A DNA stretch of 64,000 nt from an uncultured Candidatus Binatia bacterium (GCA_965218425.1 OZ244621.1:3584001-3648000); one strand, 5' to 3'; shown: positions 3,279-32,677, counted from the first letter of the stretch. Notes: generated by a model not told the origin, from the letters alone. Numbers and translations are program-made.

Positions 3279-3280
3279 AG

Positions 3281-5041: not shown

Positions 5042-5059
5042 GCGGGAAGCAACGCTTGC

Positions 5060-11612: not shown

Positions 11613-11716
11613 AGGTACCTACCAGCTAGGAATTTTGCATTCCAAAATTATGAATTTGAATTGTCATTTCTCTCGGATCTAAAGTATCAAATAGCTTTGA
11701 TCCTTGCCGGTTTTAC

Positions 11717-13498: not shown

Positions 13499-13534
13499 GG
13501 ATTTTCTTCAATGCGGACTGCTAGTCCTTTGTGT

Positions 13535-14083
13535 TCACGCCCTGTCATTCAAAAGCTGGCCGTTGTGAACTAATTTACCGGTGACGGGAATGGGGTTCTT
13601 GATGGTGTTTATGGTATGACATCCCTGCTCGATCCTGGCTAGCAATTGTTTAACCTTTTCCGCAGGGGCCGGGCTCCTAATATCAAACGTGTACATTACA
13701 CCCCGGCACGCCGGCGAGACATCCGCGATGCCCAGTTTCCCCCGGGTGTCGTAACTCATCCGTATATCCATCTTCGCATCGTCGATCTGAACATCCAGTT
13801 CTGACGCGTACCGCGTCAGTTGGCTGAACATTCAAAATCCCGTTGCAGCGACAAAGTACTGGAGGGGCGAGGGCGCCTTACCTCCTCCTCTCCTGGACTT
13901 CGCTTCGTCGCAGAGGATCGTATACTCTCCAACTCTCGCCTCCTTGAGTTGGTCTTCAACCAGACGAATCGCGGCCCGAGTCTGGATGGTATGACCTTCT
14001 GCGCCCGTCCTTGCCCGTTTTCGTTGCTCCTCAGTGGCATCTCGAAATTTGACCAGATCGATCTTTCCGGCCGGCTTACTCAT
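13535..14083 (-). CDS. OsmC/Ohr-family protein with in-frame UGA (probable selenocysteine, codon 84 of 182)
   Basis: ORFs 13832..14083 and 13535..13831 are in frame and joined by one TGA: PSPLQYFVAATGF-TGA-MFSQ, the position of the OsmC catalytic Cys; second Cys in EQGCH; downstream hairpin. Confidence 0.85.
13801..13819 (-). promoter_or_regulatory. Putative bacterial SECIS element
   Basis: Minus strand TGA-ATGTTCAGCCAA-CTGACGCG-GTA-CGCGTCAG: perfect 8-bp stem starting 12 nt after UGA with a G-initiated apical loop. Confidence 0.75.
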
Positions 14084-14100
14084 GATAAATGCCCTCCGCG

Positions 14101-15240
14101 CTAGCGGCGTTGCCTTATTTTCTTAGTAATGTCTCTCCTGTATGCCTTTCCTTCGTCCGTGCCGAACCATTTCAAGACTTCGAGGGACTCTGGACTGTCA
14201 TAAAAGGAAAGAAGTTTTGATCCGCTCTCCTTTAAGGTCTTCCTGGCCATTTTGTCATAATCACTTTGGCCCCAGTGAACATTGGTGTAGAAAGAGGGAG
14301 GTTGCCAAATCGCCTCTGCCTCTGGGGTTCCCATCCACATGCTAAAGAGAGTCCCCACCGCAGAATGACGAGCGCCCTTGGGAACAATGTAGAAGATCTG
14401 CGTTGTACCGGTGCCGTCCGCATACCAACGGTATCCTATTGGAGCCTCCGAATCCTTAGCCTTGGCGGAAAGATAGTGGTAGAAGTTCCCCGGGAAAAAT
14501 GCAAATTCTCCAAGGAGCAACCGGTTTTTTGCTTGCGTTGTGTGCATGACCCCGGCCGAATTCTTGCCGATCGTATCCACCGTCTTTAGCCATTTGTCTC
14601 TTTCGTAGACAAGGGTTCCTAACTCCCACTCGCTGGTAAAGATTCCCAATGCGTATTGTCCTTTATATTTTGGATTGGCCATATCGGCCCGACTCTTGGG
14701 CAGGTCTTTTTCGGAGATCAGTTTCGGGTTATAGATCATGACCTTATTTCGACCCGCAAAAGAAAAGGCATACCCAGTAAAAGGTGATGGACTCACCTCC
14801 TCTGGTTTCACCTTGCCAGAACGGACTAGAGGGTTGATCTCTGCAAGCAGAAGCTTCCAGTTGGCTATCTTCTGGGCATTTCCGGCATGCATCAATTCGA
14901 CAACATTATCGCCAGCGCCTGGGTATGTATCGTAGGGAGGTTTTCCGCCCGCCCTTAATGTAGCAAACAGCTGTGCGTAGGCTTTGGTTTGGCCTCCTTT
15001 CGCGATGTTGCTCTTGAGGTTATTGAGGCCGAACCGTTTTTTGAATGCCTTCATAAGTTTTGGGGTTACCCTGCCGGCCTGTCGGACCACCTGCGTGGTC
15101 AGGACGCCTTCTTTTTTCGCCTGAGCAATCAGCTCATCCAGGACCCTTTTGCCTTCGGTACTGGCAGCTACTGGCTGGGCCAGAGCAATGGTAATAACCA
15201 AACACAAAAAGACGCCAATACTTTTACCTAAGCTTTTCAT
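14101..15240 (-). CDS. ABC transporter extracellular solute-binding protein (Fe3+/thiamine-like)
   Basis: Signal peptide; AKKEG, YNPKLIS, NPKYKG, KGARHSA motifs. Confidence 0.85.
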   Translation of the reverse strand: MKSLGKSIGVFLCLVITIALAQPVAASTEGKRVLDELIAQAKKEGVLTTQVVRQAGRVTPKLMKAFKKRFGLNNLKSNIAKGGQTKAYAQLFATLRAGGKPPYDTYPGAGDNVVELMHAGNAQKIANWKLLLAEINPLVRSGKVKPEEVSPSPFTGYAFSFAGRNKVMIYNPKLISEKDLPKSRADMANPKYKGQYALGIFTSEWELGTLVYERDKWLKTVDTIGKNSAGVMHTTQAKNRLLLGEFAFFPGNFYHYLSAKAKDSEAPIGYRWYADGTGTTQIFYIVPKGARHSAVGTLFSMWMGTPEAEAIWQPPSFYTNVHWGQSDYDKMARKTLKESGSKLLSFYDSPESLEVLKWFGTDEGKAYRRDITKKIRQRR

Positions 15241-15482: not shown

Positions 15483-16253
15483 GTGAAGGAGTACGACCAA
15501 TTGTGCAACGATCTGCGGTTTGGAACCCGACTTCTGTTTCGCGACTTGGGGGATCCTTGGGGACATATTGCTGTCCGTTTACCGGACGGCGACAAGCGAA
15601 GTGGGTTCATACTCAAGCATGTGCGGGTTCCTCCACCGCCGGCCGACCCTAACGCTGTCATGATCTTCGACTACGATGGCGACTGCCTCGAAGGGGCGCG
15701 GACCCGCCCCTGGGAGATTCCAATTTATACTGCCATATTCAAGGCGCGCCCCGACGTCCAGAGCGTTATCCATACCCACCCTCACATCGCTACGGCCCTC
15801 ACCATGGCTGGTAAGACGGTTTTTGCGATTACCCATCAATCCGCTCAATTCGAACATGGCGTGCCGGTTTTTCCTGGGGACATGATCAACAGCAACGAAT
15901 TGGGCGAGGGCCTGGCGCAAACCCTTGGAAGCTTTCCCGCCGCGTTACTGAAAGGACATGGTGCCGTCTCTATTGGTACTACCATCGGACAAGCGGTTCA
16001 GAACACCCTCTACCTCGAGCAGGCTGCCCGCCAACAGATTCTCGCGGCGACCCTCGGCACACCAGAGGTGCTTGAGGAACGATTCATCGAATTTCATAGA
16101 AGGCCACCTGCAGGAGAGGGAGGTTTGGCCCTTTGGTACACCAAAATGCACTACGAGCAGACGGAGGTGAGGCCCATGGTAAATCGGTCCACGGCCAGTA
16201 AAGAAACCGCTAAGAGGAAGACCGCACCGGGTCCAAGGAGGAGGCGTAGGTAA
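15483..16253 (+). CDS. Class II aldolase/adducin family protein
   Basis: GHIAVR, RPDVQSVIHTHP, LLKGHG. Confidence 0.88.
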   Translation: MKEYDQLCNDLRFGTRLLFRDLGDPWGHIAVRLPDGDKRSGFILKHVRVPPPPADPNAVMIFDYDGDCLEGARTRPWEIPIYTAIFKARPDVQSVIHTHPHIATALTMAGKTVFAITHQSAQFEHGVPVFPGDMINSNELGEGLAQTLGSFPAALLKGHGAVSIGTTIGQAVQNTLYLEQAARQQILAATLGTPEVLEERFIEFHRRPPAGEGGLALWYTKMHYEQTEVRPMVNRSTASKETAKRKTAPGPRRRRR

Positions 16254-16297
16254 GACGCTTTAGATTGATCAATGGGACGATGAGACAGAGGTCCTAG

Positions 16298-17356
16298 TCA
16301 AATGTTCGGCTGGTATCCGTGACCGGCCACGTCCAGAATAAGTCGCCCGAACTGCTCGCGGCGTTCAAGTACGCGGTGTGCTTCAACGGCCCTCTCCAGC
16401 GGGAAAACATGGCTAATAGCCACCTTTAGGCGCTTAGCGGCGAGGAGCCGTAGGACTTTTTCGGCTTCATCAGGACGGCTTCCCTTGGAAAAAATGATCG
16501 TGGCTTGGGTCTGAATCATCGGGCCGAGATGGAAGTGTAGCTCGGAGGCGGCTGCATTGCCGGGTACAACGATTCTCCCACCGCATCTAAGGGCCTTCGC
16601 CAGCTCTTGAAAAGTGTTGCCACCAACGGTATCGAAAAAGAGATCGACGCCCCTTCCCTTGGTGCTCTGGTGAACCCTTTGGAGAACATCCTCTCTATTA
16701 TAGTCGATTACGACGTCCGCCCCTAGCGCTTTGACGAGGGTGGCCTTTTCCCGTCCACTGGTGGTGGCTATGATATGGGAGCCCGCATGGCGGGCAACCT
16801 GAACGCCTCCACTTGCGACAGCGCCACTGGCTGAGCGAATGAGTACGGTTTCTCCGGCCAGCATCTGGCCTCGGGTAATGAGGTTGTGCCAGGCGGTCAG
16901 CGTTCCTCCCTGAAAGGCCGCAGCCTGGTCATGACTGACCTCTGCTGGCTTTCTCATTAAACTCCGAGCAGGAACCGTAATATAATCCGCGTAGCCTCCC
17001 CAGTCAGAAACCCCTTGATAGCGCGGCTTTCGGCAGGCCTCCGGTAGGTCGCGGTGACAGATGTCGCAGCTCCCGCACGGGGTGATGTTGCGGGTGATTA
17101 CCTCGTCTCCTTCTTTCCACTCAGTAACGCCAGCTCCTAGTCCAGCGATGACCCCGCTGGATTCGCGGCCCAATTGAAAGGGGACCGGGGCTCGAAAATA
17201 GCTGCCCGTCCCAGCGTGCATTTCCAGGTCCGTTCGACGCACGCTGGTGGTGATAACTCGCAGTAACACCTCACCGTCAGACGGTTCCGGTGCGGGAACG
17301 TCCTCGAAGCGAAGCACCTCTGGCCCACCATATTCGTAAAAACGTACTGCCTTCAC
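16298..17356 (-). CDS. MDR-family (zinc-binding alcohol dehydrogenase/quinone oxidoreductase-like) protein
   Basis: MKAVRFYEYGGPEVL; structural-Zn CGSCDIC...C; Rossmann region ASGAVAS; catalytic Zn Cys/His appear replaced (TSVRRTD, LGRE). Confidence 0.88.
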   Translation of the reverse strand: MKAVRFYEYGGPEVLRFEDVPAPEPSDGEVLLRVITTSVRRTDLEMHAGTGSYFRAPVPFQLGRESSGVIAGLGAGVTEWKEGDEVITRNITPCGSCDICHRDLPEACRKPRYQGVSDWGGYADYITVPARSLMRKPAEVSHDQAAAFQGGTLTAWHNLITRGQMLAGETVLIRSASGAVASGGVQVARHAGSHIIATTSGREKATLVKALGADVVIDYNREDVLQRVHQSTKGRGVDLFFDTVGGNTFQELAKALRCGGRIVVPGNAAASELHFHLGPMIQTQATIIFSKGSRPDEAEKVLRLLAAKRLKVAISHVFPLERAVEAHRVLERREQFGRLILDVAGHGYQPNI

Positions 17357-17560
17357 TCTGCCTGTCCTCCTCGACGATTAGTCATCCTGCTGTCGAGCGG
17401 CAACGTTGTATCTAAAAGGTATATTCCGCCTCGCCGCTCCCCCCGGAAGGCTTGACGGGAAACTCACGAAGCGATATTACACCAATGAGGTTCCTACGCA
17501 AGATCCTGTGGAGGTTGGTTGTTTGGCTCTCCATGCCTTTGCGTGAAAAAGGGGATGCAT

Positions 17561-18256
17561 ATGATCACTAGAGATCTAAAATCCGGTGAGGCTTTAATTG
17601 GAGAATTGGAGGGATATCGGAGGGAGCATCGAAAAGAGTTTCCCTTTCGGAACGAGATTGGAAAGACAAAGGAGAAGATTATCGAGTCGAAACGTGCCAA
17701 GCATGCTGGAGGTTCGGATAATCATAAATTCGAGGGGGAAAGGTATCTCAACTGCACCGCCAAAACCATCCGCCGCCGGCAGCTGCGCAAACTGGTGGAT
17801 GAAGGCGGGTTGAGCACCTTTGGGGGGAAGGTTCCGAGCCATGCCATGTTGGATCGCATTGGATCCTACGAATTTGGGATAACCGATGACGAGATTACTG
17901 AACTAGAAAAAGGCGATCCATCGGCGGAGAAGCTCATTGTCAGGGGCTGGTGGGTCCATCTCAACCGGACCCAGCACTGGTCCATTGCCATAGGGAGTGG
18001 CATGGTTGTGGAGGGCGAAAAGAAAGTGGACCCCGAGAAAGAGGCCGAGGAGATTCAAACCATGAGGGAAGACTATGCGGAGATGGGTATTAAAAATTTG
18101 GACAATGCGCTCTGGTTCGCCTCGGAGCATGCGGAGGTGGACATAGATCATACTGAATTCAATGAGGCGGTCATCAAGCAATTTGTTAATACACCTGAAT
18201 TGCAAAATGAATTGAGAAAGGCATTCATCCTGCGTCTACAAAACCAGGGGTTTTGA
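17561..18256 (+). CDS. Heme-oxygenase-like diiron (PqqC/CADD/TenA-fold) protein, HDO-1
   Basis: CADD-like ligand set DE...SH, VVEGE, HAEVDIDH; GGGG RBS before ATG 17561. Confidence 0.7.
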   Translation: MITRDLKSGEALIGELEGYRREHRKEFPFRNEIGKTKEKIIESKRAKHAGGSDNHKFEGERYLNCTAKTIRRRQLRKLVDEGGLSTFGGKVPSHAMLDRIGSYEFGITDDEITELEKGDPSAEKLIVRGWWVHLNRTQHWSIAIGSGMVVEGEKKVDPEKEAEEIQTMREDYAEMGIKNLDNALWFASEHAEVDIDHTEFNEAVIKQFVNTPELQNELRKAFILRLQNQGF

Positions 18257-18282
18257 ATCGGTAGTTACCGAGGGGGTGTTAC

Positions 18283-19062
18283 ATGTCAGAGTTGCCCTAT
18301 GGACCAGAAGACCTGAAGGAACCGGCGCTGAGTGCAGAGGCCTTTATTCGGTTCCTCCAAGACGAAAAAGCGAAGAAATACCCGGAGCTGCCTCCTTTGT
18401 TTCAAAACCTCCATGAGGGTAAATACAGCAAAGAGCATTTGAAGCTGTGGGTGAAGGATATGTACCTGTATTGGGATTATGCCCTGGTTTACAGTACCGG
18501 CGCTATTTATGTGAAGACCAATGACGAAGAGGTGAGAACCCAAATACTTAGAAAGCTGGTGGATATCGAAGGAAAAGAAGTGGTCAAGGATCTAACCGGC
18601 TGGACCACGCCGGCTTACGAAGAGCTTTGGCTCCGCTTTGGTGAAGGGCTCGGAATCTCCAGGGAAGAGATTCAGTCTTGGAAATCATTCACTCGGAGCC
18701 ATTACGCCATGACAACCCTCTGCATGCTTTCCCGATGGTGGGAGTGGACTTGGTTAGACGGCGTGGCGAGTTTGTATGCTGGAGACCTCCACGGAAGGGA
18801 TTCCCTAGGTGGAGTGAGAGAGGCCATGAAAAAGCACTATGATGTTGCGGGCAATAGCTTGGAAATTTTTCGAGTCCTTGAGGAGGACGCGGCATCCCAT
18901 ATCCCTTGGGAGGAACAGGCGCTTGCCCATTGGTGCTGCACCCGGGAGAGGCAATTGACGGCGGCCAGAGCGTTTCGAAAGCGACTGGATATTGAAAATC
19001 AGCTGCTTGTGGCACCCCATCGGGCGGCCACCTCGGAACGGATGCCTCTTCAAATCCCCTAG
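18283..19062 (+). CDS. PqqC/CADD/TenA-fold protein with degenerate metal ligands, HDO-2
   Basis: EELWLRFGEGLG, WLDGVASLYAG, KHY pattern; His ligands replaced (PAY, VLEEDAASH). Confidence 0.75.
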   Translation: MSELPYGPEDLKEPALSAEAFIRFLQDEKAKKYPELPPLFQNLHEGKYSKEHLKLWVKDMYLYWDYALVYSTGAIYVKTNDEEVRTQILRKLVDIEGKEVVKDLTGWTTPAYEELWLRFGEGLGISREEIQSWKSFTRSHYAMTTLCMLSRWWEWTWLDGVASLYAGDLHGRDSLGGVREAMKKHYDVAGNSLEIFRVLEEDAASHIPWEEQALAHWCCTRERQLTAARAFRKRLDIENQLLVAPHRAATSERMPLQIP

Positions 19063-19071
19063 CGCAAGAGA

Positions 19072-19812
19072 TTGTCCCAGGAGAGATTGGAAGGAATGAT
19101 TGGAATGGACACGGAAACTCTTCGGGAGAATCTGATCCGGTGCATTCGTATGATGGACATGATCGCCCTTGTGGAGCACAACGGTCATGTGAGCGTACGA
19201 ATCCCCGGGACGGACCGGGTTCTCATCCAATCGCGTTACTCCAGTCGTGCGACACTGACATCGAAGGATATTGTCACCGTGGATCTCCGGGGAAACCTAC
19301 TGGAAGGCGAAGACGAGCCACCCAGCGAGACACCCATCCATACTTGTATCTATCGGGCGCGGAAAGACATTGGATCGGTGGCCCATCTCCACTGCCACTA
19401 TGCGGTATTGCTCAGTATGAGCGGTGTGGCCTTTGCCCCGGTATGCAACGATGGAATTCTCTTTGCCCGTGATGGCGTGCCACTTTTTCCCCATTCGTGG
19501 AACATAGGTAGCAATAAACGCGGTGAGGCCTTGGCTGAAACCTTGGGAGGCGCCAAAGCAGCGCTCATGAAAGGTCATGGAGCCGTGGTGGTATCGGAGG
19601 TCCTGGAAGGCCTGTTTCAGACTGCCTATCAACTTGAACAGAACGCGCGCTATCAGTACGAGCTCATGTTACTGGGAAAGTTACAACCCTTCACGGAAGG
19701 GGACGTTCGAAGTGCCCCGAAGCAAACCCTAGGGGCTTTGGAGGGCAAACGAAAGTGGAAAGTATGGGATTATTTTGTTTCCGTAGCCGAAAAGAGAGGC
19801 GTGTTTGATTGA
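19072..19812 (+). CDS. Class II aldolase/adducin family protein
   Basis: GHVSVR, PPSETPIH, HLH, MKGHG. Confidence 0.9.
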   Translation: MSQERLEGMIGMDTETLRENLIRCIRMMDMIALVEHNGHVSVRIPGTDRVLIQSRYSSRATLTSKDIVTVDLRGNLLEGEDEPPSETPIHTCIYRARKDIGSVAHLHCHYAVLLSMSGVAFAPVCNDGILFARDGVPLFPHSWNIGSNKRGEALAETLGGAKAALMKGHGAVVVSEVLEGLFQTAYQLEQNARYQYELMLLGKLQPFTEGDVRSAPKQTLGALEGKRKWKVWDYFVSVAEKRGVFD

Positions 19813-19839
19813 ATCTAGATGAGTATAGGAGGGGAGAAT

Positions 19840-20541
19840 ATGTCTCATCCGCTGGTACCTGGTGACGAGTTTTTAGAAGAATTGGAAGGGTTGCGCAGAA
19901 ATCATCTCAAAGGTGGACTCTTGCGGCCGCGTGCCCACCATAGGACCAAAGAGGAGGTTGCGGAGTCAAGACGAAGATATCATCGAGGAGGGGACAACAA
20001 CCACCGTTTCGAGGGCGAGAGATACTTAAACTGTACGGATAAGGCTATTCGGCGCAAGCAACTCCGTAAACTGATCGACGAAGGGGGACAAACCACGGTG
20101 GGTGGGAAGACACCCAGCCATCCCACACTCGCCCGGTGGGAATCGGAGGAGTTTGGGTTAACCGATGAGGAAATCACCCGGTTGGAAAAGGAGGATTGCG
20201 GCCCCGAAAAGCTCATTGTGTGGGGCTGGCGCGTTAACATGCATCGCACCAGCGATTGGTCCGTAGCCATCGGAAGCTCCCTGGTGGGCGAGGGGGAAAA
20301 GAGGATTCCCGAGATCAGACAACATCTCCTGGACAATGTTAAGATATTGAGAAAAGAGTACGCAGAGATGGGTATCAAAGACGTGGAGCGGGCCCTGGCC
20401 TTTAAAATTGAACACGCCGACGTGGACGTGGACCACGCAGAGCTAGGAGCGGACGTGGTGAGAAGATACGTGAATACCCCCGAACTTCAGGACGAGATGC
20501 GTAAAGCTTTCTCGTTGACGCTCCATATGCACGGATACTGA
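19840..20541 (+). CDS. Heme-oxygenase-like diiron protein HDO-3 (paralog of HDO-1)
   Basis: FEGERYLNCT shared with HDO-1; DEGG...SH, VGEGE, HADVDVDH; AGGAGG RBS. Confidence 0.7.
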   Translation: MSHPLVPGDEFLEELEGLRRNHLKGGLLRPRAHHRTKEEVAESRRRYHRGGDNNHRFEGERYLNCTDKAIRRKQLRKLIDEGGQTTVGGKTPSHPTLARWESEEFGLTDEEITRLEKEDCGPEKLIVWGWRVNMHRTSDWSVAIGSSLVGEGEKRIPEIRQHLLDNVKILRKEYAEMGIKDVERALAFKIEHADVDVDHAELGADVVRRYVNTPELQDEMRKAFSLTLHMHGY

Positions 20542-20553
20542 TCTCTTCGATTC

Positions 20554-20619
20554 ATAAATTCGGTAACGAATTTGTCCGCCTTCGCAGAAGACCACGGCCG
20601 TAAGGCCGTGGAGGCTTCA
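20554..20619 (+). repeat. Tandem GTAA-loop hairpins, resembling an IS200/IS605 right end or PATE remnant
   Basis: AAATTCG-GTAA-CGAATTT and CCACGGCC-GTAA-GGCCGTGG followed by AGGCTTCA. Confidence 0.45.
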
Positions 20620-20695
20620 TGCCCTCAGAACCTGGGCTGATCTTTCGACCCGTTGTGGGTCATGCTATTACTCTAGCCTATGGTCGATGTTGTTG

Positions 20696-22492
20696 TTAGC
20701 GTGGAGCCCGTAAGCGGCCACCCGTAAGCGGCAACGAAAGTAAAAGAATCACCCCCACGGTTACCACCATAATGACCGCCCCCGCCGATGCGGCGCCGAT
20801 ATTGCCGGCGTCCCAGGCATGCCAGACTCCCACCGCCAACACCTGATTCCTGGGACCCGAAAGAAATAGGGCCACACTGACTTCCCGAAAGGTCGACATG
20901 GCCGTCCAGATTGCGGCGAAGATCAGGGACGGCCTAATTAGCGGAACAAGGATGTACCAAATGGTACTGGTGGTAGTGGCCCCACATACGTGAGCGGACT
21001 CTTCCAGCTCCTGTTGCACCTGAATGAACGCGGCATTGGTGATACGAGTGGAATAGGTGATCCGTTCCATAAGAAGAGCGATGGCAATAATCGCAATGGT
21101 TCCGTTTAAGTAGAACCATGGCAACGATCGTTCCAGGAGAAGGGCCACGATAAAAAGGGCGAAGGCAAAGGCCAAACCCGGTATGGCGTGGGGCAGCATG
21201 GCGATATTGTCCATGAGGTGACGAGAGCGTACGCGGGTGCGCACCACTACCCACGAGATGGTTACGCTGAAGAATAAGACGAGAATCGGTACGATTACGA
21301 TTAGTTTCACCGTGTTCCAAACGACGTGGGATCCCCCAATGATGGCCATGAAGTATTCCGGATCGTAGTTGTTCAAGCTGGCTTTGGATAGGGCAGCAAT
21401 AGACGGCATGTGGACGTAGGGGAATAGGGACATCCAGCCCAGCACCGTCATTGGCATAATGGCTGCGAGCATGATGTAAAGGATGACAAATCCTAAAGCG
21501 GGATACTTGAACTTTCTGAGACCATGGGCGTGGGGCCGGTAACCCTTTCCTGAAATTACGGCAAATCGATGAGACTTTTCCAATACCCGGTGGTAAAAGT
21601 ACAGCGCCACCAGAGACGGCCCGGCGATGACCACCCCGTACACACCGGCTGCACCGTAGCTCACCAGGGTTGCCTCACCCGTAGCCGGACGGACCGCATA
21701 AAATAGTTCAGTGGCCAGAACGGGCGATTGGCCTCCCGCCGCACCCAGCATGGCCGGGACCTCGAACATGGATAGGGCGGTCATGAAATGGTAAATCGAT
21801 CCCCCCAGAACGGCGGGCCAGACCAGAGGTAGACCGACCCTTGCAAAAGTCCACCACCGATTCGCCCCGGATACAGCGGCCGCCTCTTCCAGGGAGGGAT
21901 CCATGGAGCGCATGGGACCAGACAAAAGGAAAAACATCGAAGGCGTCAGGGACAAGCCCATGACCCATGCCATCCCATAAGGGTTTGCCAGGCTAAGGGG
22001 AATGGACTCCAAACCCAATAGGCCCGCCAGGGAGTTATTGATGAGACCGATCCGTGGGTTGATCAGGAGGATCCAACCCATTGCTTTCACAAATCCCGGG
22101 ATGAGCACCACTACGGCTAGAAGGGATGTAAAAAAATCTCGAAAGGGTACATCCGTGCGGTTAAGCAACCAGGACAATGGTCCGGCGAAAACCAGAGATA
22201 CCAAGACCGTGCCGATTCCGACAATTAATGTGTTGGGGAGTACCTTGTTGAAAACATAGGGCCGAGCCAAATTTGTCCAGTGCTCTAGGGTGAGGCCGGG
22301 CTCGGTGGGAAGGAAAGGAACAAAGCTCATGTACAGGGTGACAAGGGAGAGAGAGACAATGCCACCCAGCAAAATCCAAGATACAAAAACCGGCATGGTT
22401 TGAGATCCAACCATGCCGCCAAACACTTGCCAATAGGGAAGGGCTCGGCCGGCACCTCCCCCCTTCGTAACAGTTGTTTGCGTATCTGCCAC
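20696..22492 (-). CDS. ABC transporter permease (FbpB type), paralog of 11717..13498
   Basis: TM segments, LEEAAAVSGA and LEESAHVCGA; shared FEVPAMLGAAGG. Confidence 0.92.
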   Translation of the reverse strand: MADTQTTVTKGGGAGRALPYWQVFGGMVGSQTMPVFVSWILLGGIVSLSLVTLYMSFVPFLPTEPGLTLEHWTNLARPYVFNKVLPNTLIVGIGTVLVSLVFAGPLSWLLNRTDVPFRDFFTSLLAVVVLIPGFVKAMGWILLINPRIGLINNSLAGLLGLESIPLSLANPYGMAWVMGLSLTPSMFFLLSGPMRSMDPSLEEAAAVSGANRWWTFARVGLPLVWPAVLGGSIYHFMTALSMFEVPAMLGAAGGQSPVLATELFYAVRPATGEATLVSYGAAGVYGVVIAGPSLVALYFYHRVLEKSHRFAVISGKGYRPHAHGLRKFKYPALGFVILYIMLAAIMPMTVLGWMSLFPYVHMPSIAALSKASLNNYDPEYFMAIIGGSHVVWNTVKLIVIVPILVLFFSVTISWVVVRTRVRSRHLMDNIAMLPHAIPGLAFAFALFIVALLLERSLPWFYLNGTIAIIAIALLMERITYSTRITNAAFIQVQQELEESAHVCGATTTSTIWYILVPLIRPSLIFAAIWTAMSTFREVSVALFLSGPRNQVLAVGVWHAWDAGNIGAASAGAVIMVVTVGVILLLSLPLTGGRLRAPR

Positions 22493-22533
22493 TACTTTGG
22501 ATCTGTTTCTTTGCGCGGTAAATGCGGGCTCAG

Positions 22534-23675
22534 CTAGCGTCTCTGGGTCACGGCCGCTTTGATCTTGGAACGATATTTTCTCCCCTCGTCAGTGGCCCAC
22601 CATTTTAAGGTCGCCACCGTCTCAGGTGATTGTAGATAGGATACCAATCTGCTTCCGCTCTTTTTGATAGCGGCCTTAGAACGGTTGTCGATGTCGCTCT
22701 GTCCGAAAATCAGGTTCTCCTGTGGGCTTGCAGCCTGTAGAATCGTTTGCGCCTCAGGGGTGGTCATCCACAGAGACCAAAGCGTTGCGCCAGCGGGATG
22801 CCTTGAGCCTCTGGGAAGCAGATACATCATAGGTGAAAGGGGTGTGTAATCGGAGAACCAATGGAGGCCAACGGGGGCCTTAGGGTCACGCGTTTTCACT
22901 CCCCAATACTCGGCGCTGTTCATATAGGTGTAGCATATTCTTTCAACAGGATGCGGTTAAGGGCAGGTTGAAAACGCATGACTGCGGCAGCGTTTTTTCC
23001 GATACGATCCATGGTCTTGAGCCATTTGGATTTGTCTTTGTAAACTAAAATCCCCTGTTCGAAGATATCGGTCCACGGGGCGACGGTAAACTTGCCTTTG
23101 AACTTGGGGTCAGCAAGATCGATAATGCGCCTGGGGATGGTCTTCACGGAAGCAAGCTCCTTGTGGTAAACCATTACTTTGGTACGGGATCCCCAGATAA
23201 ACGCTTGACCCCCAACTACGGAAGGGCTCACTTGGTGGGCTTTAACTGTCCCTGAGGCCACCATGGGATTCACGGCGGCAAGCAGTGGCTTCCAGTTTTT
23301 TACCGGTGTCGCATAGCCTTTTTCCACCGTCACAATAGCGTCGTTGGCACTGCCGGTTAGGGAGTGAAACTGTGGTCTCCCGCCGGCTCTAAGGGTAATC
23401 AACATCTTGGCGAATTTGCCTGCCTGGTCACCCAATGCCACATTGATTTTGAGGTTTAGGCCGAATCTTTTGTTGAAGGCCTTCACAAGCTTGGGAACCC
23501 CGGGTCCCAACTGGGTGACGGTAGCCGTGTCGAGGGTGCCTTCCTTTTTTGCTTTCTCGATCAGGTCATTTAAGAGTTTTTTTCCTTCGGAATTGGCGGA
23601 CGCATGGATAATTCCAAATGATATAAAGGCAACTGTCGATACCGCGACCATGATAAGCTTCCCTGGGGCGTTCAT
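22534..23675 (-). pseudogene. ABC solute-binding protein split by a -1 nt frameshift near 22925-22935
   Basis: ORFs 22920..23675 and 22534..22923 together align with intact paralog 14101..15240; 8 nt instead of 9 between EYA and MNS. Confidence 0.75.
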
Positions 23676-23734
23676 TGTAATCTCCTCAATTAGCGTGAAT
23701 TCGAGTTTTTTTGCGCCGGGGCAAAAGATTTACA

Positions 23735-24778
23735 CTAGGCATGGACACATTTCATATCGGTTACCGACGGGGCTTTAACATCAAACTTCATCCATGACTG
23801 ACCGTCGTCTTTGCTTCCATACAGCTCTCCGCCTCGAGTGCCGGCATATAGGACCTTTGGATCGGTTTCGTCGAAGGCAATGGCCTCGGGAAACCCTTGT
23901 GTTGCGGCGGCGAGGCCACCCTCAAGTTTTTGCCAATGGGTCCCGCCATCATCTGTCTTAACAATGAGCGACTCTGCGCCGGTATCTCTTTTTCGCCACT
24001 GGTTGGGTTGACCGTGGGCCAGCGCAGAAAAAATGACCTTGGGATTGTTGGGATGCATGACCAGGGGAACCGAATATTCCTGGGAGAACTCCATGCCGGT
24101 AGGGGTCCATTGTTCCCCACCGTCATTGCTCATGTAGAGGGCCTTGCCCTTGGTTTTACCTAGACGGCAATCGTGGCCTCCAGTGGCGATGAAGATGTTC
24201 TTAGGATTGCTGGGATTGATGACGATGGTGTGTACATCGCAATCCAGCTCCCTGTCCAGCAGTTTCCAACTGGCCCCGCCGTCCGTGGTCTTTAGAATAT
24301 AACCCACCTGAAGGGCGGCATAGATGGTTTTGGAGTCCTGGGGATCCACGACAATCTCCCTTACATGAGGCTCCACCGTTGCCACGGGGTAGGGAACCGT
24401 TGCTACAAATGGAATATCCCAAACCGAGTCGAATCGAGTCCAGCTCTTGGTGCCATCCCGACTGACAAAGATGTCGATGGGTTCGGTGCCAGCGTATACC
24501 GTGTTGGAATCATGGGGATCTAAGGCAACGGACCGAACCTTGCCCGGGCCGCGCTTGCCGTAGCAAAGCTTTTTCCAGCTCTCGCCAAAATTCTCACTAA
24601 ACCACACTCCGTCGCCACGGGTGCCGGCAAAGATCCGGTTGGGTGAAGCGGTATCCACCGCAACCTTGGGCACTTCCCACTCCTTCAGGCCGTGGTGCGC
24701 TACGTTCCAAGACTTGCCGTCGTCACTCTTTAGAGTCATGAGGCCTTTCTCTGTACCCAAGTAAAGTATTGAAGCCAT
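23735..24778 (-). CDS. BNR/Asp-box beta-propeller protein, paralog of 7781..8797
   Basis: Asp-boxes; shared AGTRGDGVW, CYGK, TVEPHVR, DVH, ATGGHDCR motifs. Confidence 0.85.
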   Translation of the reverse strand: MASILYLGTEKGLMTLKSDDGKSWNVAHHGLKEWEVPKVAVDTASPNRIFAGTRGDGVWFSENFGESWKKLCYGKRGPGKVRSVALDPHDSNTVYAGTEPIDIFVSRDGTKSWTRFDSVWDIPFVATVPYPVATVEPHVREIVVDPQDSKTIYAALQVGYILKTTDGGASWKLLDRELDCDVHTIVINPSNPKNIFIATGGHDCRLGKTKGKALYMSNDGGEQWTPTGMEFSQEYSVPLVMHPNNPKVIFSALAHGQPNQWRKRDTGAESLIVKTDDGGTHWQKLEGGLAAATQGFPEAIAFDETDPKVLYAGTRGGELYGSKDDGQSWMKFDVKAPSVTDMKCVHA

Positions 24779-24962
24779 AGCTTTTCCCTCCTCCTATAAA
24801 ATCTATATAATTTTAGGAACATCGTTATCATGGAAAGTTTAAAGCTGTCAAGGGGAGTCCAGGATTTCGTCTTGGATGGCCGTGTAAGCAAATAGACGGC
24901 TTGACACCAGCACGGTCTATCATGGCATATAGGGATTGCTGATCCGATGGGAGGCTATATTT

Positions 24963-25772
24963 ATGGAAAAAACAGTTCTTACCATGTCGTCGGACCTTCA
25001 GCTGGAAGAGGGAGTGCCGGGCCTGCCGGCTGATGAGTTCATCGCCGGCATTTGGCTGGAGCGCAGGCGATACGTAAGGGAAGGCCGGATCAAGCAGCCA
25101 CATCCTTGGAGTGTTGCTTTAGCCGAGGGTAAAGTGTCCAGAGAAGCCGTCATCGCCTACGTGAAAAACCGCCATTACTTTTTGGCCAATATCAATCGCA
25201 AGGACGCCCAGATCATCGCCAACTGTCCGGTGTCGGAGGCCAGGCGACAATTGATGCGGAAATACATCGATGAGGAGGGCCAGGATATCGTAGGAGGACA
25301 ATTGGGTCCCCATTACGAGATGTGGGTCAAAGTGGCGGAGGGGTTTGGCGTCTCCAGGGATGAGCTGAACAGTTTCAAAGATGTTTTGCCGGCCTACCGT
25401 TACACGGTGGACGCCGTCTTTAACTTTGCCAAGCACCATGGTTGGCTGGAAGGACTGGCCGCCACTTATGCTACGGAAGGGCAAATGTGGAGGCGTTATA
25501 CTCCAAAAGATGAGCACAAGGATACAAAGCTTCTGGGCGAGGGTGAGGCGCTGAAGAAATACTACGGCCTCCTGGACGGGGCGCTGGAGTTTTTCAATGT
25601 GCACAGTGACGCCAACGACGAGCACGGCGACATCTGTGAGAATATCATCAAAAAATACTGTACGACCCAGGAACTCCAGCGGAAAGCTCTAGCGGCAGCC
25701 CGGTTCAGGTGGGACAATCACGAGACGCGGCAGGATATTGTCTATCACTATTTCGTTTCAGATCGAAGCTAG
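24963..25772 (+). CDS. PqqC/CADD-like heme-oxygenase-like diiron protein HDO-4
   Basis: HPW, ANCP, IDEEG...PHYEMW, WLEGLAATYATEGQ, FFNVHSDANDEHG. Confidence 0.82.
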   Translation: MEKTVLTMSSDLQLEEGVPGLPADEFIAGIWLERRRYVREGRIKQPHPWSVALAEGKVSREAVIAYVKNRHYFLANINRKDAQIIANCPVSEARRQLMRKYIDEEGQDIVGGQLGPHYEMWVKVAEGFGVSRDELNSFKDVLPAYRYTVDAVFNFAKHHGWLEGLAATYATEGQMWRRYTPKDEHKDTKLLGEGEALKKYYGLLDGALEFFNVHSDANDEHGDICENIIKKYCTTQELQRKALAAARFRWDNHETRQDIVYHYFVSDRS

Positions 25773-25951
25773 AGGTATTGCTTCCCGTCTTGGTTGATCG
25801 CCGTCTCCCACCGAATTTGCGACTGACTCAAAAATGGCGGTGATCAACTCAACCCATCTGTGAACTTTGCCTGAAGGAGCGCACAGCATCAACTTGACAA
25901 GGTATTGGCGTAAAGCTATGAGGTATGAAAAGTCTATGGGGTCAATCCGGC

Positions 25952-26754
25952 ATGGCAACCCTTACAGAACTGAGAGATAGGGTCCGGGAAATGTACAAAG
26001 GGACTAAAACACCCTGGGCCTACCCTAGATTCCCGCAGCCACCGGAAGACTTTTTGCCCCCGGAAAAATTTCTTGAGGTGGTATCCGAAGCGGTCCTGTT
26101 TCATCACACCAAAATCAACCATCCGTTTTGTGTCAGGCTAGTGCGTGGAGAGTGGTCCAAGAGCCAGCTTCAGGCATGGGCCATTCAAGATTACCATGCG
26201 AAGGTCCAGACCCTTAGGAACGACGCCTACATCGTGGCGACGGCGTCTAATTTGGAAGAATTGCAAGAACAGCTCAAGGTGTTGATTTCTAAGTCGGGCG
26301 AGGATCTAGCGGGGGGAAGTACCCCAGCCACCCCGAACTCTGGCTGAGGTTTGCCGAGGCGCTAGGGCTTAGGCGGGAGGACGTGACAAAGTCTGAGCTC
26401 ACACCGTTGATGCAGGTGGTGCTGGACGCCAAGCGCTTTCGGTCCATGAAACAAAACGTGGGTGATCTTCCTGCGAATTTGAGGGTAGGGGAAAAGATCA
26501 ACTCTCTTGTGCACCCCATCTGGGCCGAAGCTTTTGTGGAGAAATACAAGATTGACACCAGTGCCCTGGATTTTTTCACCGCCCATGGAGAAGCGGACCA
26601 GGACCATGGGAAGCTAGGCGAGCAGATCGTTTTAAGTCGGGCGGTTACCAAAGAGGCCCAACGGGCCATCTGGCTGCATCTGAAGACGAGCCAGGGAAAG
26701 CAGTGGGTGACTTACGATGCCTTCTACCAGTCTGCTCTGCAGGCAGGTGAGTGA
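25952..26754 (+). pseudogene. PqqC/CADD-like protein HDO-5, frameshifted in a G6 run (26311-26316)
   Basis: Adding one base restores AGGKYPSHPELWLRFAEALG and joins to FFTAHGEADQDHG; N-terminal HPF motif. Confidence 0.8.
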
Positions 26755-26795
26755 GTCTAGACTCGACTCCATGGTAAGAGGGGAGTTAGAATTAC

Positions 26796-27539
26796 ATGGC
26801 CGCAACCAAAAAGACCAGTGAAACCAGTTTGAAACAACGCCTGGTGGACGGGTTGAAGGTGTTGACGGGGGAGGGCGTTTTGACAGGCTCGGGCCACCTG
26901 AGCGTGCGAATTCCCGGCACAGAGAATTTTTTAATTAACCCGAGATTCCCCGGTGTTCTGGCCACTCCCAAGGACATCTGCACGGTGAACGCGGATGGAA
27001 AACGAATTGCTGGCAAGGGTCCTATCCCTTCGGAGACTCCGATCCACAGTTGCATTTACCGCGCACGGCCGGACGTAAAGAGTGTGCTACACTGCCATCC
27101 TCGTTACTCGATCCTCTTGGGGCTGCAGGAAAAAGGATTGATCCCCTTTAATCGTGAGGCGCGGATGTTTGCGGACGGAGTGCCGGTTTTTCCCAATAGC
27201 ATTGGGATCAACACCGACGGGTTGGCCAATGTGATGGTACAGGCCCTCGGTACTCACTACGCGCTTTTTCTACGTGCCCACGGTGTCGTCGTAGTGGGTC
27301 CGGGCATCGAAGGGACCTGCGTCTCGGCGATCCAACTGGAGCGTGCTTGCCAAGACCAGATATTGCTCATGAGCTTTACGAATCCGGTCCCCATGGCGGA
27401 TAAAGAACGGGGAAGGGTCGAGGCGCGGCTGGAGAATCCGTATAGGGCTTGGCCCTATCTCCTGTACAAGCACAAGGTGAAGTCCCCTGCACGGGTTCGT
27501 GCTTCCATAAAGACGCTCAAAGAGGGCGAGCACTATTAA
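26796..27539 (+). CDS. Class II aldolase/adducin family protein
   Basis: GHLSVR, PSETPIH, RPDVKSVLHCHP, LRAHG. Confidence 0.9.
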   Translation: MAATKKTSETSLKQRLVDGLKVLTGEGVLTGSGHLSVRIPGTENFLINPRFPGVLATPKDICTVNADGKRIAGKGPIPSETPIHSCIYRARPDVKSVLHCHPRYSILLGLQEKGLIPFNREARMFADGVPVFPNSIGINTDGLANVMVQALGTHYALFLRAHGVVVVGPGIEGTCVSAIQLERACQDQILLMSFTNPVPMADKERGRVEARLENPYRAWPYLLYKHKVKSPARVRASIKTLKEGEHY

Positions 27540-27542
27540 ATC

Positions 27543-28313
27543 TCAGGCTCGGATGTCTCCATCGCCTGTGTGTGGCTTTCCCGTAAAAAAGCATGGGACC
27601 TCGCCCGCCGCGACCCGTTGGGCACCGCCGCTGTATCCGCGGCCGATGACAGGATCATGGGCCTTGAATTTTCTAAACAAGTCGAAGGCACGCTCCCAGT
27701 CCCACTTTCCGTTCTTGCGCCACAGCCAGGCCAATCGACCGGGTATCTCCTCCGACGAACGGGACAACATGGTTTTACCCTTCCATTTTGGATCGCCCAT
27801 CTCTTCCCAGGTTTTTGGCACGTCCTTAGGCGATACGAGATCCGTGTTATACATCACTTGTACTCTGGGGTTCCCCAATCCCCCCACGTATAGCCCATGG
27901 GGAGGTTGACTACCCCGAACAAAATCCTTGAGATGAGGGCATGTGTTTTTGGCAAGAAGATTTCGTCTCACGAAGATCTCCGAACCATCCTCACTGATAC
28001 CCGCCCAATCGATGGTCAAGCGCCCGGCCTTTGCCTCGAGAGACACTCGGTTGACGGTATCTTTGGTGTTCATCTCGATATCCTTGATAGTCATAAAGGG
28101 GTATCTCTTTCGGAACCCTTTTAAATCTCGCTTTAGGTCCTCTGCGATGCTACCTGAAAGCACGAGGGTCCCTTCTTTCTTAGCCTTTGCAATCATCTGA
28201 TCCCGAAGAGAACCAGCAAAGGCGTCTGGTTGACTCAGGGGACCCCAATCATTAGAGCTAAAGCGAACAGGCTCAACATATAAAATCTCGTTATTCCCTT
28301 CATGATTAGGCAT
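27543..28313 (-). pseudogene. Truncated ABC solute-binding protein (paralog of 31289..32371)
   Basis: Aligns with the paralog from SLRDQMI to AAGEVP, then ends abruptly against the convergent aldolase; no intact signal peptide. Confidence 0.7.
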
Positions 28314-28367: not shown

Positions 28368-29471
28368 TTAGGAAGAGCTGGCTATGACACGGCAGCGCTC
28401 GGGTGCCAGGTAGATGTTCACGTTTTTTCCTGGTTCTAATGAAGTGGATGGGTGGACTTTCATCCGTAGCCGCTGATCTGCCACCGACACCCAGCAGTCG
28501 AGCATCTCTCCAGTAAACACCACCGTGTCTACATGGGCCTCTAATACGTTATGATCAGGCCACGCCGTGCCTTCACAAACCGTGAGATCTTCGGGACGGA
28601 TCATTACCACCACCTCTTTGCCCTCCAAGTCATCCTCCGCCACGGCACAGCGGATGCCGCCGCTTTTTGTCTTGACCTCCCCCAGGCCATTTGGCCTGCC
28701 TGCGGACATCGCCCCAGGGAGAAAGTTGGCTAAACCGATGAAGTCCGCGACAAAACGGTTGCTGGGAACTTTATAAATATCCAGTGAAGATCCTTCCTGG
28801 ACGATCTGACCGGAACTCATGACTGCGACCCGATCCGACATGGTAAGGGCCTCTAACTGGTCATGGGTCACGTAGAGAGTGGTGATTTTCAGACGCTTGG
28901 CCAGTTCCCTGATTTCGAAACGCATATCCTCGCGCAACTTCGCGTCCAAATTGCTCAGGGGTTCATCCAGTAACAGTACCCGCGGCTCGTGAACCAAGGC
29001 ACGGGCCAGGGCAACCCTTTGCTGCTGGCCGCCGCTCAGAAAAGGGGCAGGGCGATCGGCGAAGCCTTCCAATTGAATCAACTGGAGTGCCCGCATCACC
29101 CGCTCTTTGACTTCCTTTTTCGGGACCCGCCGTTGGCCGTGAACTAGGGGGAAGGACACGTTCTGGAAAACAGTCATATGGGGCCATATGGCATAGGATT
29201 GAAAGACGATTCCGTAATCCCGTTTTGGCGCCGACACGTTGATTTGCTTCTCGCTTGAATAGACGAGTTGATCCTCGATCCAGATTTCACCCTCTTCAGG
29301 CTCTTCAAAGCCGGCGATACAGCGCAAGGTGGTAGTCTTACCACAGCCTGAAGGACCCAGCAGGGTGTAAAACTCCCCAGGCTCCACCTGGAAACTGATG
29401 CCACTGAGGGCCTGTACGGCGCCCTGATCCTGGGCAGGATAGGTCTTTTTTAGATTTGTGATTTTGATCAT
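28368..29471 (-). CDS. ABC transporter ATP-binding protein (FbpC/PotA type)
   Basis: GPSGCGKT, LSGGQQQR, LLLDEPLSNLD. Confidence 0.95.
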   Translation of the reverse strand: MIKITNLKKTYPAQDQGAVQALSGISFQVEPGEFYTLLGPSGCGKTTTLRCIAGFEEPEEGEIWIEDQLVYSSEKQINVSAPKRDYGIVFQSYAIWPHMTVFQNVSFPLVHGQRRVPKKEVKERVMRALQLIQLEGFADRPAPFLSGGQQQRVALARALVHEPRVLLLDEPLSNLDAKLREDMRFEIRELAKRLKITTLYVTHDQLEALTMSDRVAVMSSGQIVQEGSSLDIYKVPSNRFVADFIGLANFLPGAMSAGRPNGLGEVKTKSGGIRCAVAEDDLEGKEVVVMIRPEDLTVCEGTAWPDHNVLEAHVDTVVFTGEMLDCWVSVADQRLRMKVHPSTSLEPGKNVNIYLAPERCRVIASSS

Positions 29472-29472
29472 T

Positions 29473-31227: not shown

Positions 31228-31288
31228 GGTTCAGGCCTCTTTTTCACTGATTAGCTCTTCTATTTCGTTTCCGCCGATCTTGATGCCG

Positions 31289-32371
31289 CTACTTGATGCC
31301 TAGTAGTTTGAAGAAGAAGGTTTCAGATTTCTTTTGAATCTTTGTATCAAACATCAGCTCCACGTCCATAGGCGTAGTGTTATCCACCGTGATGTCATTG
31401 TCCGTAAGCCATTTCCCGAGTTTACCGGCCTTGGCCTTTTTGTTGACTGGGACCTTAGCCGAAATAACTTCGGTGTATTCATGCTGTCCTTCGGGCGACG
31501 TGAGGTAGTCGATTAAGAGCCAGGAAGCAGATGGATGTTTAGCACCCTTGAGGATGCCAAAATTACGGAAGGTTCCGCTGAATCTAGGGAAGGCCACAAG
31601 GCCAATGGGTGCCCCTTTGAAATACATGCGAGAAGCTGGTCCCACCACGCCAAACCAAAACATCGGGACCTCGCCTGCGGCCACCCGCTTGATGCCGCCT
31701 CGATAACCCCGACCAATCATTGGTTTTTGTTTTGCCAGTTTTGTGAAGAAGTCGAAGGAGCGCTCCCAGTTCAATTTTCCACCCTTAGACCAGAAGTACG
31801 CCATTTGAGCAGGCATTTCCTCTGATGACCGAGACAACATAGTTTTGCCGGTCCATTTGGGGTCCGTCATCTCTTCCCAGGACTTGGGTATATCTTTGGG
31901 TGATACGAGCTTCGTATTATAGACTCCTTGCACTCTGGGATTCAAAAACGCCTTGATGTAAAGCCCATGCTTCGGTTGCGTTCCCGACGCGAAATCCCGT
32001 AGGTGGGGGAACTCGTGCTTGACCAACAGATTCGCCTTGGCCAAGATTTCTTCCCCATCGCTGCTGACGGCGGGCAAATCAAAGCTAAGCTTGCCGGCTT
32101 TGGATTCGGCGACGATTCGATTGATGGTATCGGCAGTGTTTCCTGCAAACGCTTTGAGTTTTAGAAATGGGTACCTCTTCTTAAATCCTTTGAGTTCATC
32201 ACGAAAATTATCGGCATTGCTGCCGGCCACAACGAATTCACCTTCTTTCTTGGCCTTCTCTATCATTTGATCGCGCAGCGAAGAACCATAAAGGGCTCCT
32301 GGTTGAAAACCCACGATTCCCACGACAAGCACTAAAACGGTCACCTGGTGTAATCTGAACACGAAACTCAT
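31289..32371 (-). CDS. ABC transporter extracellular solute-binding protein
   Basis: Signal peptide after ATG 32371 (AGAGG RBS); AKKEG, YNTKLV, DPKWTGK, AKHP. Confidence 0.85.
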   Translation of the reverse strand: MSFVFRLHQVTVLVLVVGIVGFQPGALYGSSLRDQMIEKAKKEGEFVVAGSNADNFRDELKGFKKRYPFLKLKAFAGNTADTINRIVAESKAGKLSFDLPAVSSDGEEILAKANLLVKHEFPHLRDFASGTQPKHGLYIKAFLNPRVQGVYNTKLVSPKDIPKSWEEMTDPKWTGKTMLSRSSEEMPAQMAYFWSKGGKLNWERSFDFFTKLAKQKPMIGRGYRGGIKRVAAGEVPMFWFGVVGPASRMYFKGAPIGLVAFPRFSGTFRNFGILKGAKHPSASWLLIDYLTSPEGQHEYTEVISAKVPVNKKAKAGKLGKWLTDNDITVDNTTPMDVELMFDTKIQKKSETFFFKLLGIK

Positions 32372-32527
32372 TATAATCCTCTTTTGGGTGATATCCCTTT
32401 GATATGACTGTGTTTCTATGACCGGTATGGTGTACGGCTTATTTACGAAACTAACCCGGGCAAGCAAATTGCCAAAGGGCCTTGTACTATGGCTATTGGA
32501 TTGAGTCAAGTGGCCGATTCGCCGGTC

Positions 32528-32636: not shown

Positions 32637-32673
32637 AAGACCCCCTGCGGTAGCTCCGTTGGGGTCTTTTTTT
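32637..32673 (+). terminator. Attenuator intrinsic terminator before pyrR
   Basis: AAGACCCC...GGGGTCTT followed by a T run, ending 5 nt before ATG 32678. Confidence 0.8.
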
Positions 32674-32677
32674 GTCT

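Follow-up and report, generated by a model that had tools for sequence, protein, structure and literature searches.

What brings five genes of heme-oxygenase-like (HO-like) fold together with three class II aldolase-fold genes, a beta-propeller and several importers on one short part of a bacterial chromosome? The question is raised by positions 15483-27539 of a stretch of 64,000 nucleotides (the window) from an uncultured Candidatus Binatia bacterium of soil (GCA_965218425.1 OZ244621.1:3584001-3648000). The source genome, labeled G000, is complete, 4.46 Mb long, and has 54% G+C. The window, G000:C1:3584001-3648000, was annotated up to position 42000; open reading frames (ORFs) were checked against Pfam and NCBIfam profiles, and positions are those of the whole stretch. 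All genes named in an initial annotation of this island are present, namely five HO-like genes, three class II aldolases, an MDR-family oxidoreductase, a BNR propeller, and ATP-binding cassette (ABC) modules. The answer favored here, with moderate confidence, is a mosaic catabolic island around a new, probably two-subunit HO-like oxygenase, with the operon hdoA1-hdoB2-ald2-hdoA3 as its core. The hdoA-hdoB2 pair is its noteworthy element, an uncharacterized variant within the heme-oxygenase-like diiron oxygenase (HDO) superfamily. The operon is tight, with gaps of 26, 9, and 6 bases, and the MDR reductase gene is transcribed divergently from it:

17561-18256, plus strand: hdoA1, HO-like gene with a structure model and the full ligand motif
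18283-19062, plus strand: hdoB2, PqqC-like HO-fold gene, downstream partner of hdoA
19072-19812, plus strand: ald2, class II aldolase-fold metalloenzyme (lyase, decarboxylase, or oxygenase; PF00596)
19819-20541, plus strand: hdoA3, second hdoA-family gene, with the full ligand motif

The five HO-like genes fall into four families, one of which is shared by hdoA1 and hdoA3. These two proteins are 53% identical to each other, and either is 23-25% identical to hdoB4; the start of hdoA1 at 17561 agrees with family members of 231 amino acids. Their Pfam scores, 20.8 bits for hdoA1 and 27.5 bits for hdoA3, lie below the gathering score of 28.9, and hdoA1 gives no match at all in NCBIfam. The two proteins are assigned to the HO fold by the structure model. 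The AlphaFold model of hdoA (predicted local distance difference test, pLDDT, 81) has the seven-helix HO-like fold, as has the model of hdoB2; hdoB4 and hdoB5 are placed by profile and sequence homology. The structures nearest to the hdoA model are CADD/CT610 and NePabS, which are self-sacrificing 4-aminobenzoate synthases (PDB 1RCW, 8VA9, 9PJ4; template-modeling score, TM, 0.73-0.79), then PqqC and UndA, and the weaker structural matches comprise UndA, BesC, HrmI, and AetD. The residues E81, H94, E151, H190, D194, and H197 (231-residue numbering) are invariant in an alignment of 20 hdoA sequences, and both hdoA1 and hdoA3 carry the full 3-His/3-carboxylate dimetal motif, the ligand set of HDOs. 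These ligand columns line up with the corresponding columns of the hdoB4 family in a profile alignment. The layout, in which three successive helices carry E...H, E, and HxxxDxxH, is presumably that of CADD. Judged from its sequence, hdoA would bind two metal ions and activate O2. CADD differs from hdoA in several respects: identity is about 16-18%, the CADD-type model does not match hdoA1 and scores hdoA3 far below its cut-off, and hdoA is paired with a ligand-poor paralogue, is present twice in one operon, and lies amid importers and catabolic-type genes. The hdoA family also has an invariant N-terminal motif, GGDxNH(R/K)FEGERYLN (residues 48-64), which includes an invariant Tyr; hdoB4 is without a counterpart, and its aligned stretch is a different conserved sequence.

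By profile searches, hdoA is a small, isolated family. An exhaustive search of 1.84 billion cluster representatives gave 57 matches at E≤1e-3, of which 16 reach E≤1e-30; full-length clusters among the matches number about 5, and the next full-length relative scores 84 bits. Searches of the PDB with the hdoA profile and with hdoA3 alone returned chance matches only, hdoA1 alone found 9pj4 at E 0.021, and the ESM Atlas search gave only clusters of "hypothetical protein". Among 41 relatives, orthologues scoring at least 249 bits are confined to G000, G001, G002, and G039. Matches to hdoA1 of 33-37% identity, present in 35 of the 41, are general HO-like paralogues and were rejected as hdoA orthologues. 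Two longer proteins were likewise rejected as fusions of hdoA: P0249 (540 amino acids) is a garbled read-through of two genes, and in P0253 (390 amino acids) the N-terminal part is unrelated.

The second member of the pair is nearest to another structure. The hdoB2 model (pLDDT 82.6) best matches PqqC, the metal-free oxidase of pyrroloquinoline quinone (PQQ) synthesis (PDB 1OTW, 3HLX; TM 0.78-0.79), followed by CADD (TM 0.72), with TenA structures below both. hdoB2 resembles PqqC in having no dimetal site and many conserved basic residues. No His is invariant in a 16-sequence alignment of the hdoB2 family, and in a profile-profile alignment with the hdoB4 family (probability 99.6%), two His ligands and one Asp ligand are replaced by Ala, Leu, and Ala. 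Three of the six ligands, the His of alpha-1 and both His and Asp of alpha-3, have thus been lost family-wide; one Glu, one Asp, and one variable His/Asp are left, which falls short of the 3-His/3-carboxylate set. hdoB2 could be a non-metal subunit or could perform a second, metal-independent step. The island had been described as one of five diiron proteins. Five HO-like genes are indeed present, but only two intact ones, hdoA1 and hdoA3, have the full ligand set: hdoB2 lacks half of it, hdoB4 carries an Asn variant, and hdoB5 is a pseudogene. The structure models divide in the same way, into a CADD-like hdoA, whose motif is complete by alignment, and a PqqC-like, ligand-poor hdoB2.

The pairing of the two genes extends well beyond this genome. 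A locus scan with one genome per species yielded 77 loci with an hdoA relative in three phyla; they come from Binatia, from Acidimicrobiales, and from Chloroflexota, where most belong to Dehalococcoidia, SAR202 among them. In these loci, the hdoB2 relative is placed as follows:

61 of 77 loci: directly downstream of hdoA, on the same strand and within 400 bases
2 of 77 loci: directly upstream of hdoA
4 of 77 loci: nearby, in another arrangement
1 of 77 loci: contig ends at the hdoA locus
9 of 77 loci: no hdoB2 relative found in the locus

Direct adjacency is therefore found in 63 of 77 loci. The rest of the island accompanies the pair less often: a fused permease in 13 loci, a BNR propeller in 10, a binding protein in 8, an MDR reductase in 4, and a class II aldolase in 3. 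Across phyla, only the hdoA-to-hdoB2 pair is kept. The catabolic system proposed initially is retained here as far as the importers and catabolic-type enzymes around the pair are concerned, but not as a single pathway joining aldolases, propeller, and all importers: the class II aldolase, the BNR propeller, and the fused permease accompany the pair in only 3, 10, and 13 of the 77 loci, respectively.

Among close relatives, the whole island is syntenic in two Binatia genomes. G001, of the same genus, has the same order, with hdoB5 missing and about 10 kb inserted before ald3; in G002, of the same family, the island is inverted and without hdoA1, permease 3 is in pieces, and the order is hdoB2-ald2-hdoA3. 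G039, which belongs to another family, has the triad hdoA1-hdoB2-ald2 at 70-72% identity and a lone hdoA3. The linkage is thus conserved in other genomes where G001 and G002 are concerned, but outside Binatia it shrinks to the hdoA-hdoB2 pair. A further proposal, that a unit of two HDO genes and an aldolase occurs twice, describes gene order only: the counterparts are 23-34% identical and belong to different families, there was no duplication, and hdoB5 is not there in G001 or G002.

Three types of context surround the pair in Dehalococcoidia, where neighbor clusters with antisense ORF calls over hdoB2 in GC-rich loci were excluded from the Pfam scan. In the first, an HpcH/HpaI aldolase lies directly upstream, together with an acyl-coenzyme A (CoA) dehydrogenase, a family III CoA-transferase, a MaoC hydratase, an MmgE/PrpD protein, and a flavin adenine dinucleotide enzyme. 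The second has an Amidohydro_2 gene directly upstream, accompanied by a LigXa-like Rieske oxygenase, a fused Fe3+-type permease, a P450, and an MMPL protein; five of its loci also have a BNR propeller 49-52% identical to that of the window. The third has a peptide-type ABC importer upstream and a phosphoenolpyruvate-mutase/isocitrate-lyase family gene with a 2-hydroxyacid dehydrogenase downstream. All three contexts look like uptake and breakdown. Every one of them has an enzyme of the enolate-stabilizing lyase/decarboxylase kind, and no biosynthetic machinery was seen around the pair in the contexts scanned.

Such surroundings must be set against the composition of the genome itself. G000 is rich in paralogues, with 124 Amidohydro_2 and 92 Rieske matches (the latter mostly oxygenase-sized ORFs of about 400-450 amino acids), about 61 loci for Fe3+/polyamine-type binding proteins and 47 for permeases, 15 BNR propellers, 12 loci of the class II aldolase fold, and about 15 of the HO-like fold. 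As a paralogue-rich degrader, the organism has such cassettes everywhere in its genome. At 10 other HO-like loci of G000 (59 ORFs), an Amidohydro_2, UbiD, Rieske, or cupin gene lies within 4.5 kb in 7, and the remaining three adjoin esterases, DHDPS-type aldolases, or a molybdenum hydroxylase. On a rough estimate, about 40% of 9-kb windows in 4.46 Mb would hold an Amidohydro_2 or Rieske gene by chance. A catabolic neighborhood argues only weakly for a catabolic role, because the 124 Amidohydro_2 and 92 Rieske matches make such neighbors expected by chance.

Around the core operon, the window carries the following genes, with three ABC systems in the region, all of which have fused double permeases:

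3-1172: LigXa-like Rieske oxygenase, just upstream of the island
1203-6805: HyuA and two HyuB (hydantoinase/oxoprolinase family, or acetone-carboxylase type), just upstream of the island
6848-7756, plus strand: NMT1/THI5-like gene without signal peptide, in the upstream extension of the island
7781-8797, minus strand: second BNR propeller, in the upstream extension
8794-9387, minus strand: ORF of 197 amino acids without Pfam family, with a 4-base overlap onto the start of the second BNR propeller gene
9529-10443, plus strand: NMT1/THI5-like gene without signal peptide, in the upstream extension
10479-15240, minus strand: ABC system 1 (ATPase 10479-11612, fused permease 11717-13498, binding protein 14101-15240)
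15483-16253, plus strand: ald1, class II aldolase-fold protein (PF00596)
16298-17356, minus strand: MDR-family oxidoreductase, divergent from the hdoA1 operon
20696-22492, minus strand: fused double permease of ABC system 2, which has no ATPase gene of its own
22534-23675, minus strand: solute-binding protein 2, frameshifted in G000
23735-24778, minus strand: BNR/Sortilin-type beta-propeller without signal peptide, divergent from hdoB4
24963-25772, plus strand: hdoB4, PqqC-like HO-fold gene
25925-26754, plus strand: hdoB5, frameshifted HO-like gene in two frames (25925-26347 and 26383-26754)
26796-27539, plus strand: ald3, class II aldolase-fold protein (PF00596)
27543-28313, minus strand: truncated solute-binding gene (SBP3b), C-terminal third gone
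28368-32509, minus strand: ABC system 3 (ATPase 28368-29471, fused permease 29473-31227, binding protein 31289-32509)
after ABC system 3: pyr operon

Within 32672-35383, pyrR (32672-33265) is followed by an ORF of 646 amino acids in which a PyrI C-terminal zinc domain and another PyrR-like phosphoribosyltransferase domain are fused, unusually, to aspartate carbamoyltransferase domains. About 5% of the sampled words were found in the RNA runs X12 and X13, a figure that says nothing on expression. The Rfam scan gave no family in the window, and therefore no riboswitch, including a thiamine pyrophosphate (TPP) riboswitch, was found there.

hdoB4 and the broken hdoB5 are read as separate modules in the same region. 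The best sequence match of hdoB4 is PqqC (1e-23). Its family is very conserved, with 66-85% identity across Binatia and Chloroflexota, and shows the pattern E/H/E/H/N/H, in which the invariant Asn N227 takes the place of the third carboxylate and is followed by H230, with D228 beside the Asn. Orthologues at E≤1e-60 were detected in 27 of 123 genomes of the order; in a 151-genome phylum sample, which includes few Binatia, only G000 itself had the gene at that threshold. Of 26 flanking loci outside G000, 7 have a BNR gene close by, 2 an hdoB5-like gene (75% identity), and 1 an ald3 gene. The Pfam scan of hdoB4 neighbors covered 15 proteins from 8 of the 26 loci (ORFs having been picked from 9), and an NMT1/THI5-like neighbor was present in all 8, on both sides in 5. 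hdoB4 is a separate module with its own linkage to NMT1/THI5-like genes and the BNR propeller, because NMT1/THI5-like genes flank its orthologues elsewhere. The two NMT1/THI5-fold proteins of the window are probably cytoplasmic enzymes and not binders, since they are without a signal peptide. The halves of hdoB5 show, by eye, E..H, E, and HxxxDxxH, in a gene that is itself frameshifted. An intact paralogue elsewhere in G000, 46% identical to the N-terminal half and 52% to the C-terminal half, carries the complete ligand motif in the paralogue alignment, and hdoB5 is not at the corresponding site in G001 or G002.

The frameshift in hdoB5 lies near a G-run at about 26310, and that of solute-binding protein 2 occurs in G000 in a gene that is in frame in G001 and G002. 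Both are probably genuine and not assembly errors, because contigs of three runs from three studies (X1, X2, and X4, one or more of which may be the source sample) match G000 over 22400-26900 with 0 differing letters and 0 gaps. The relatives also show turnover of the island, with the fragmented permease 3 in G002 and, in G001, an extra permease gene along with the insertion of about 10 kb.

The three aldolase-fold proteins belong to the PF00596 family, with scores of 105.2, 117.6, and 119.1 bits for ald1-3 against a gathering score of 22.2. They share this family with FucA, AraD, MtnB, HMPDdc, PhtC, NovR, and pyruvic oxime dioxygenase, without an equivalog-level match: all hits to the NCBIfam equivalogs FucA, AraD, MtnB, PhtC, OtnC, and Ru1P aldolase are below cut-off (PhtC 70.7-87.8 bits against 200), and the best models, PRK06557 and PhtC, score 70-92 bits against cut-offs of 200-251. 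By eye, ald1-3 retain the metal ligands (His-x-His and a later His) as well as the position of the catalytic Glu, and Gly-His stands in place of the Gly-Asn phosphate-binding motif; non-phosphorylated substrates are only suspected. A paralogue of ald3 elsewhere in G000 is 61% identical. The MDR oxidoreductase best matches the PIG3-type quinone oxidoreductase subfamily, below the cut-off of that model. For ald2, the nearest solved structures are FucA/DrdA (3e-14), the decarboxylase HMPDdc (2z7b, 1e-10), and NovR (5e-9); 8il8 follows at E 3e-7, with similar E-values for 8ix6 and 8iqa, all three titled only "Aldolase". According to the extracts used of PMC11841055, 8IL8 is AfPOD, and the aldolase-fold family includes, besides aldolases and epimerases, HMPDdc (2Z7B), a decarboxylase that uses Mn(II), and a dioxygenase that uses Fe(II). 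The term "aldolase" is thus read here as aldolase, decarboxylase, or oxygenase, because the functions of the family vary and no equivalog cut-off is reached.

Could the HO-like genes be known cofactor enzymes in an unusual place? Against the PqqC model TIGR02111 (cut-off 240 bits), hdoB4 scores 102.9, hdoB2 48.7, the N-terminal half of hdoB5 25.7, and hdoA3 20.4, with no match for hdoA1; the best score anywhere in G000 is 129.9 bits. The CADD-type model TIGR04305 (cut-off 200 bits) gives 74.4 for hdoB4, 47.2 for hdoB2, and 25.0 for hdoA3, again without a match for hdoA1. For PqqE (cut-off 381 bits), no match in G000 exceeds 58.5 bits. These scores support the view that the five proteins are not PqqC or CADD orthologues, and they are probably not TenA orthologues either. 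The statement of the initial annotation that PQQ genes are missing nearby holds genome-wide for PqqC and PqqE, neither of which exceeds its cut-off anywhere in G000; no search was made for pqqA, pqqB, pqqD, or the genes of folate and thiamine. A pair that makes a small molecule or cofactor, such as a PQQ-like quinone or, from its own residues as in CADD, a p-aminobenzoate-type product, is judged unlikely in view of these scores, of the two hdoA copies in one operon, and of contexts that vary, yet always hold transport and catabolic-type genes with no biosynthetic machinery seen. CADD and PqqC are nevertheless the nearest structures, the hdoA family is small and tightly conserved with its invariant N-terminal motif and Tyr, and in the extracts used of a 2026 review the characterized HDOs, about a dozen, are all biosynthetic (PMC13108848). 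Salvage of the thiamine pyrimidine by TenA-like hydrolases, ThiY/NMT1-like binders, and a thiamine/Fe-type ABC importer would suit the matches of hdoB2, hdoB4, and hdoB5 to PF03070, the joint TENA/THI-4/PQQC model, and the NMT1/THI5-like genes in the window and flanking hdoB4 orthologues. It is extremely unlikely, as these matches are partial (profile positions 8-106 or 11-129 of 210), the proteins are nearer to PqqC and CADD, no TPP riboswitch was found in the window, the NMT1-like proteins there are without signal peptide, and the genome has about 15 such paralogues.

Two other explanations concern the way in which the genes of the island would work together. Amine N-oxygenation followed by nitrite release would have hdoA act like SznF, HrmI, or RohS and give the class II aldolase-fold protein an Fe(II) dioxygenase activity comparable to that of pyruvic oxime dioxygenase (POD). 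N-oxygenation is a major HDO activity in the review extracts (PMC13108848), POD belongs to PF00596 and has an Fe(II)/3-His site (PMC11841055, extracts), and ald2 does match AfPOD. This route is nonetheless very unlikely: ald2 is nearer to FucA/DrdA, HMPDdc, and NovR than to AfPOD, PODs form a tight group with mutual E < e-60 (same extracts of PMC11841055), and the aldolase is linked to the pair in Binatia only. It is rather unlikely that there is no joint system, i.e., that independent catabolic cassettes lie side by side, the HO-like genes act alone, and the pair represents two consecutive steps and not a complex. The adjacency of the pair in 63 of 77 loci across three phyla, operon gaps of 6-26 bases over four genes, and the recurrence of the triad at about 70% identity in another family argue against it. 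The four HO-like families, each with its own linkage elsewhere, the abundance of Amidohydro_2, Rieske, binding-protein, and HO-like loci in the genome, and the presence of aldolase, BNR propeller, and permease with the pair in a minority of the loci are consistent with it.

In the catabolic island favored here, hdoA would associate with hdoB2 as a complex, and the pair would have a catabolic role. An ABC system would import an anionic small organic molecule, with a (hetero)aromatic or other carboxylate as the leading guess; an anionic substrate is suggested because the hdoA and hdoB2 families each hold many invariant Arg/Lys residues. The hdoA/hdoB2 pair would then oxidize the imported molecule with O2, and in Binatia the product would pass to the class II aldolase-fold metalloenzyme, as C-C lyase or decarboxylase, and on to the MDR reductase. 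Several points weigh against this scheme. The enrichment of catabolic neighbors at HO-like paralogues (7/10) was rejected, since it is not significant against chance counts; the synteny among G000, G001, and G002 may reflect only close kinship; and the aldolase linkage is confined to Binatia. Three island genes are broken or truncated in G000. No hdoA-hdoB2 fusion was present among the longer hdoA forms searched, which is weak evidence, and the HDOs characterized so far, biosynthetic throughout, act mainly on fatty-acid or amino-acid substrates (PMC13108848, extracts).

PqqC differs from hdoB2 and hdoB4, which score 48.7-102.9 bits against 240 in a genome with neither PqqC nor PqqE above cut-off. 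The fast-growing HDO superfamily exceeds 10,000 sequences, and about a dozen of its enzymes are validated (extracts used of PMC13108848). UndA, BesC, SznF, HrmI, AetD, FlcD/E, PolF, and MboA share with the pair the HO-like helical fold and with hdoA the 3-His/3-carboxylate ligand set (same extracts). These are single proteins of natural-product or cofactor biosynthesis, whereas the pair of the island has an uptake and catabolic context and a conserved second HO-fold gene. In the same review, the word "heterodimer" is absent and "catabol" is used only for heme (PMC13108848). No publication on the hdoA, hdoB2, or hdoB4 families was found among titles and abstracts of the literature on Binatota/Binatia, on SAR202, and on HDOs with class II aldolases.

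The fullest version of the two-subunit reading is doubtful. It would make the pair the first two-subunit HDO and the first dedicated to catabolism, with a dimetal catalytic hdoA obligately paired with a degenerate PqqC-like hdoB2 that would supply a pocket for the anionic substrate or a coupled metal-free oxidation. Binatia, SAR202/Dehalococcoidia, and Acidimicrobiia are lineages known to degrade recalcitrant organic matter, and with such an enzyme they would open compounds that other oxygenases cannot. If true, the HDO superfamily would be extended to catabolism and to a hetero-oligomeric architecture, in abundant uncultured bacteria of soil and ocean. The pair, two genes of about 230 and 260 residues, would be a concrete, expressible target for new O2-dependent chemistry on environmental organic matter.

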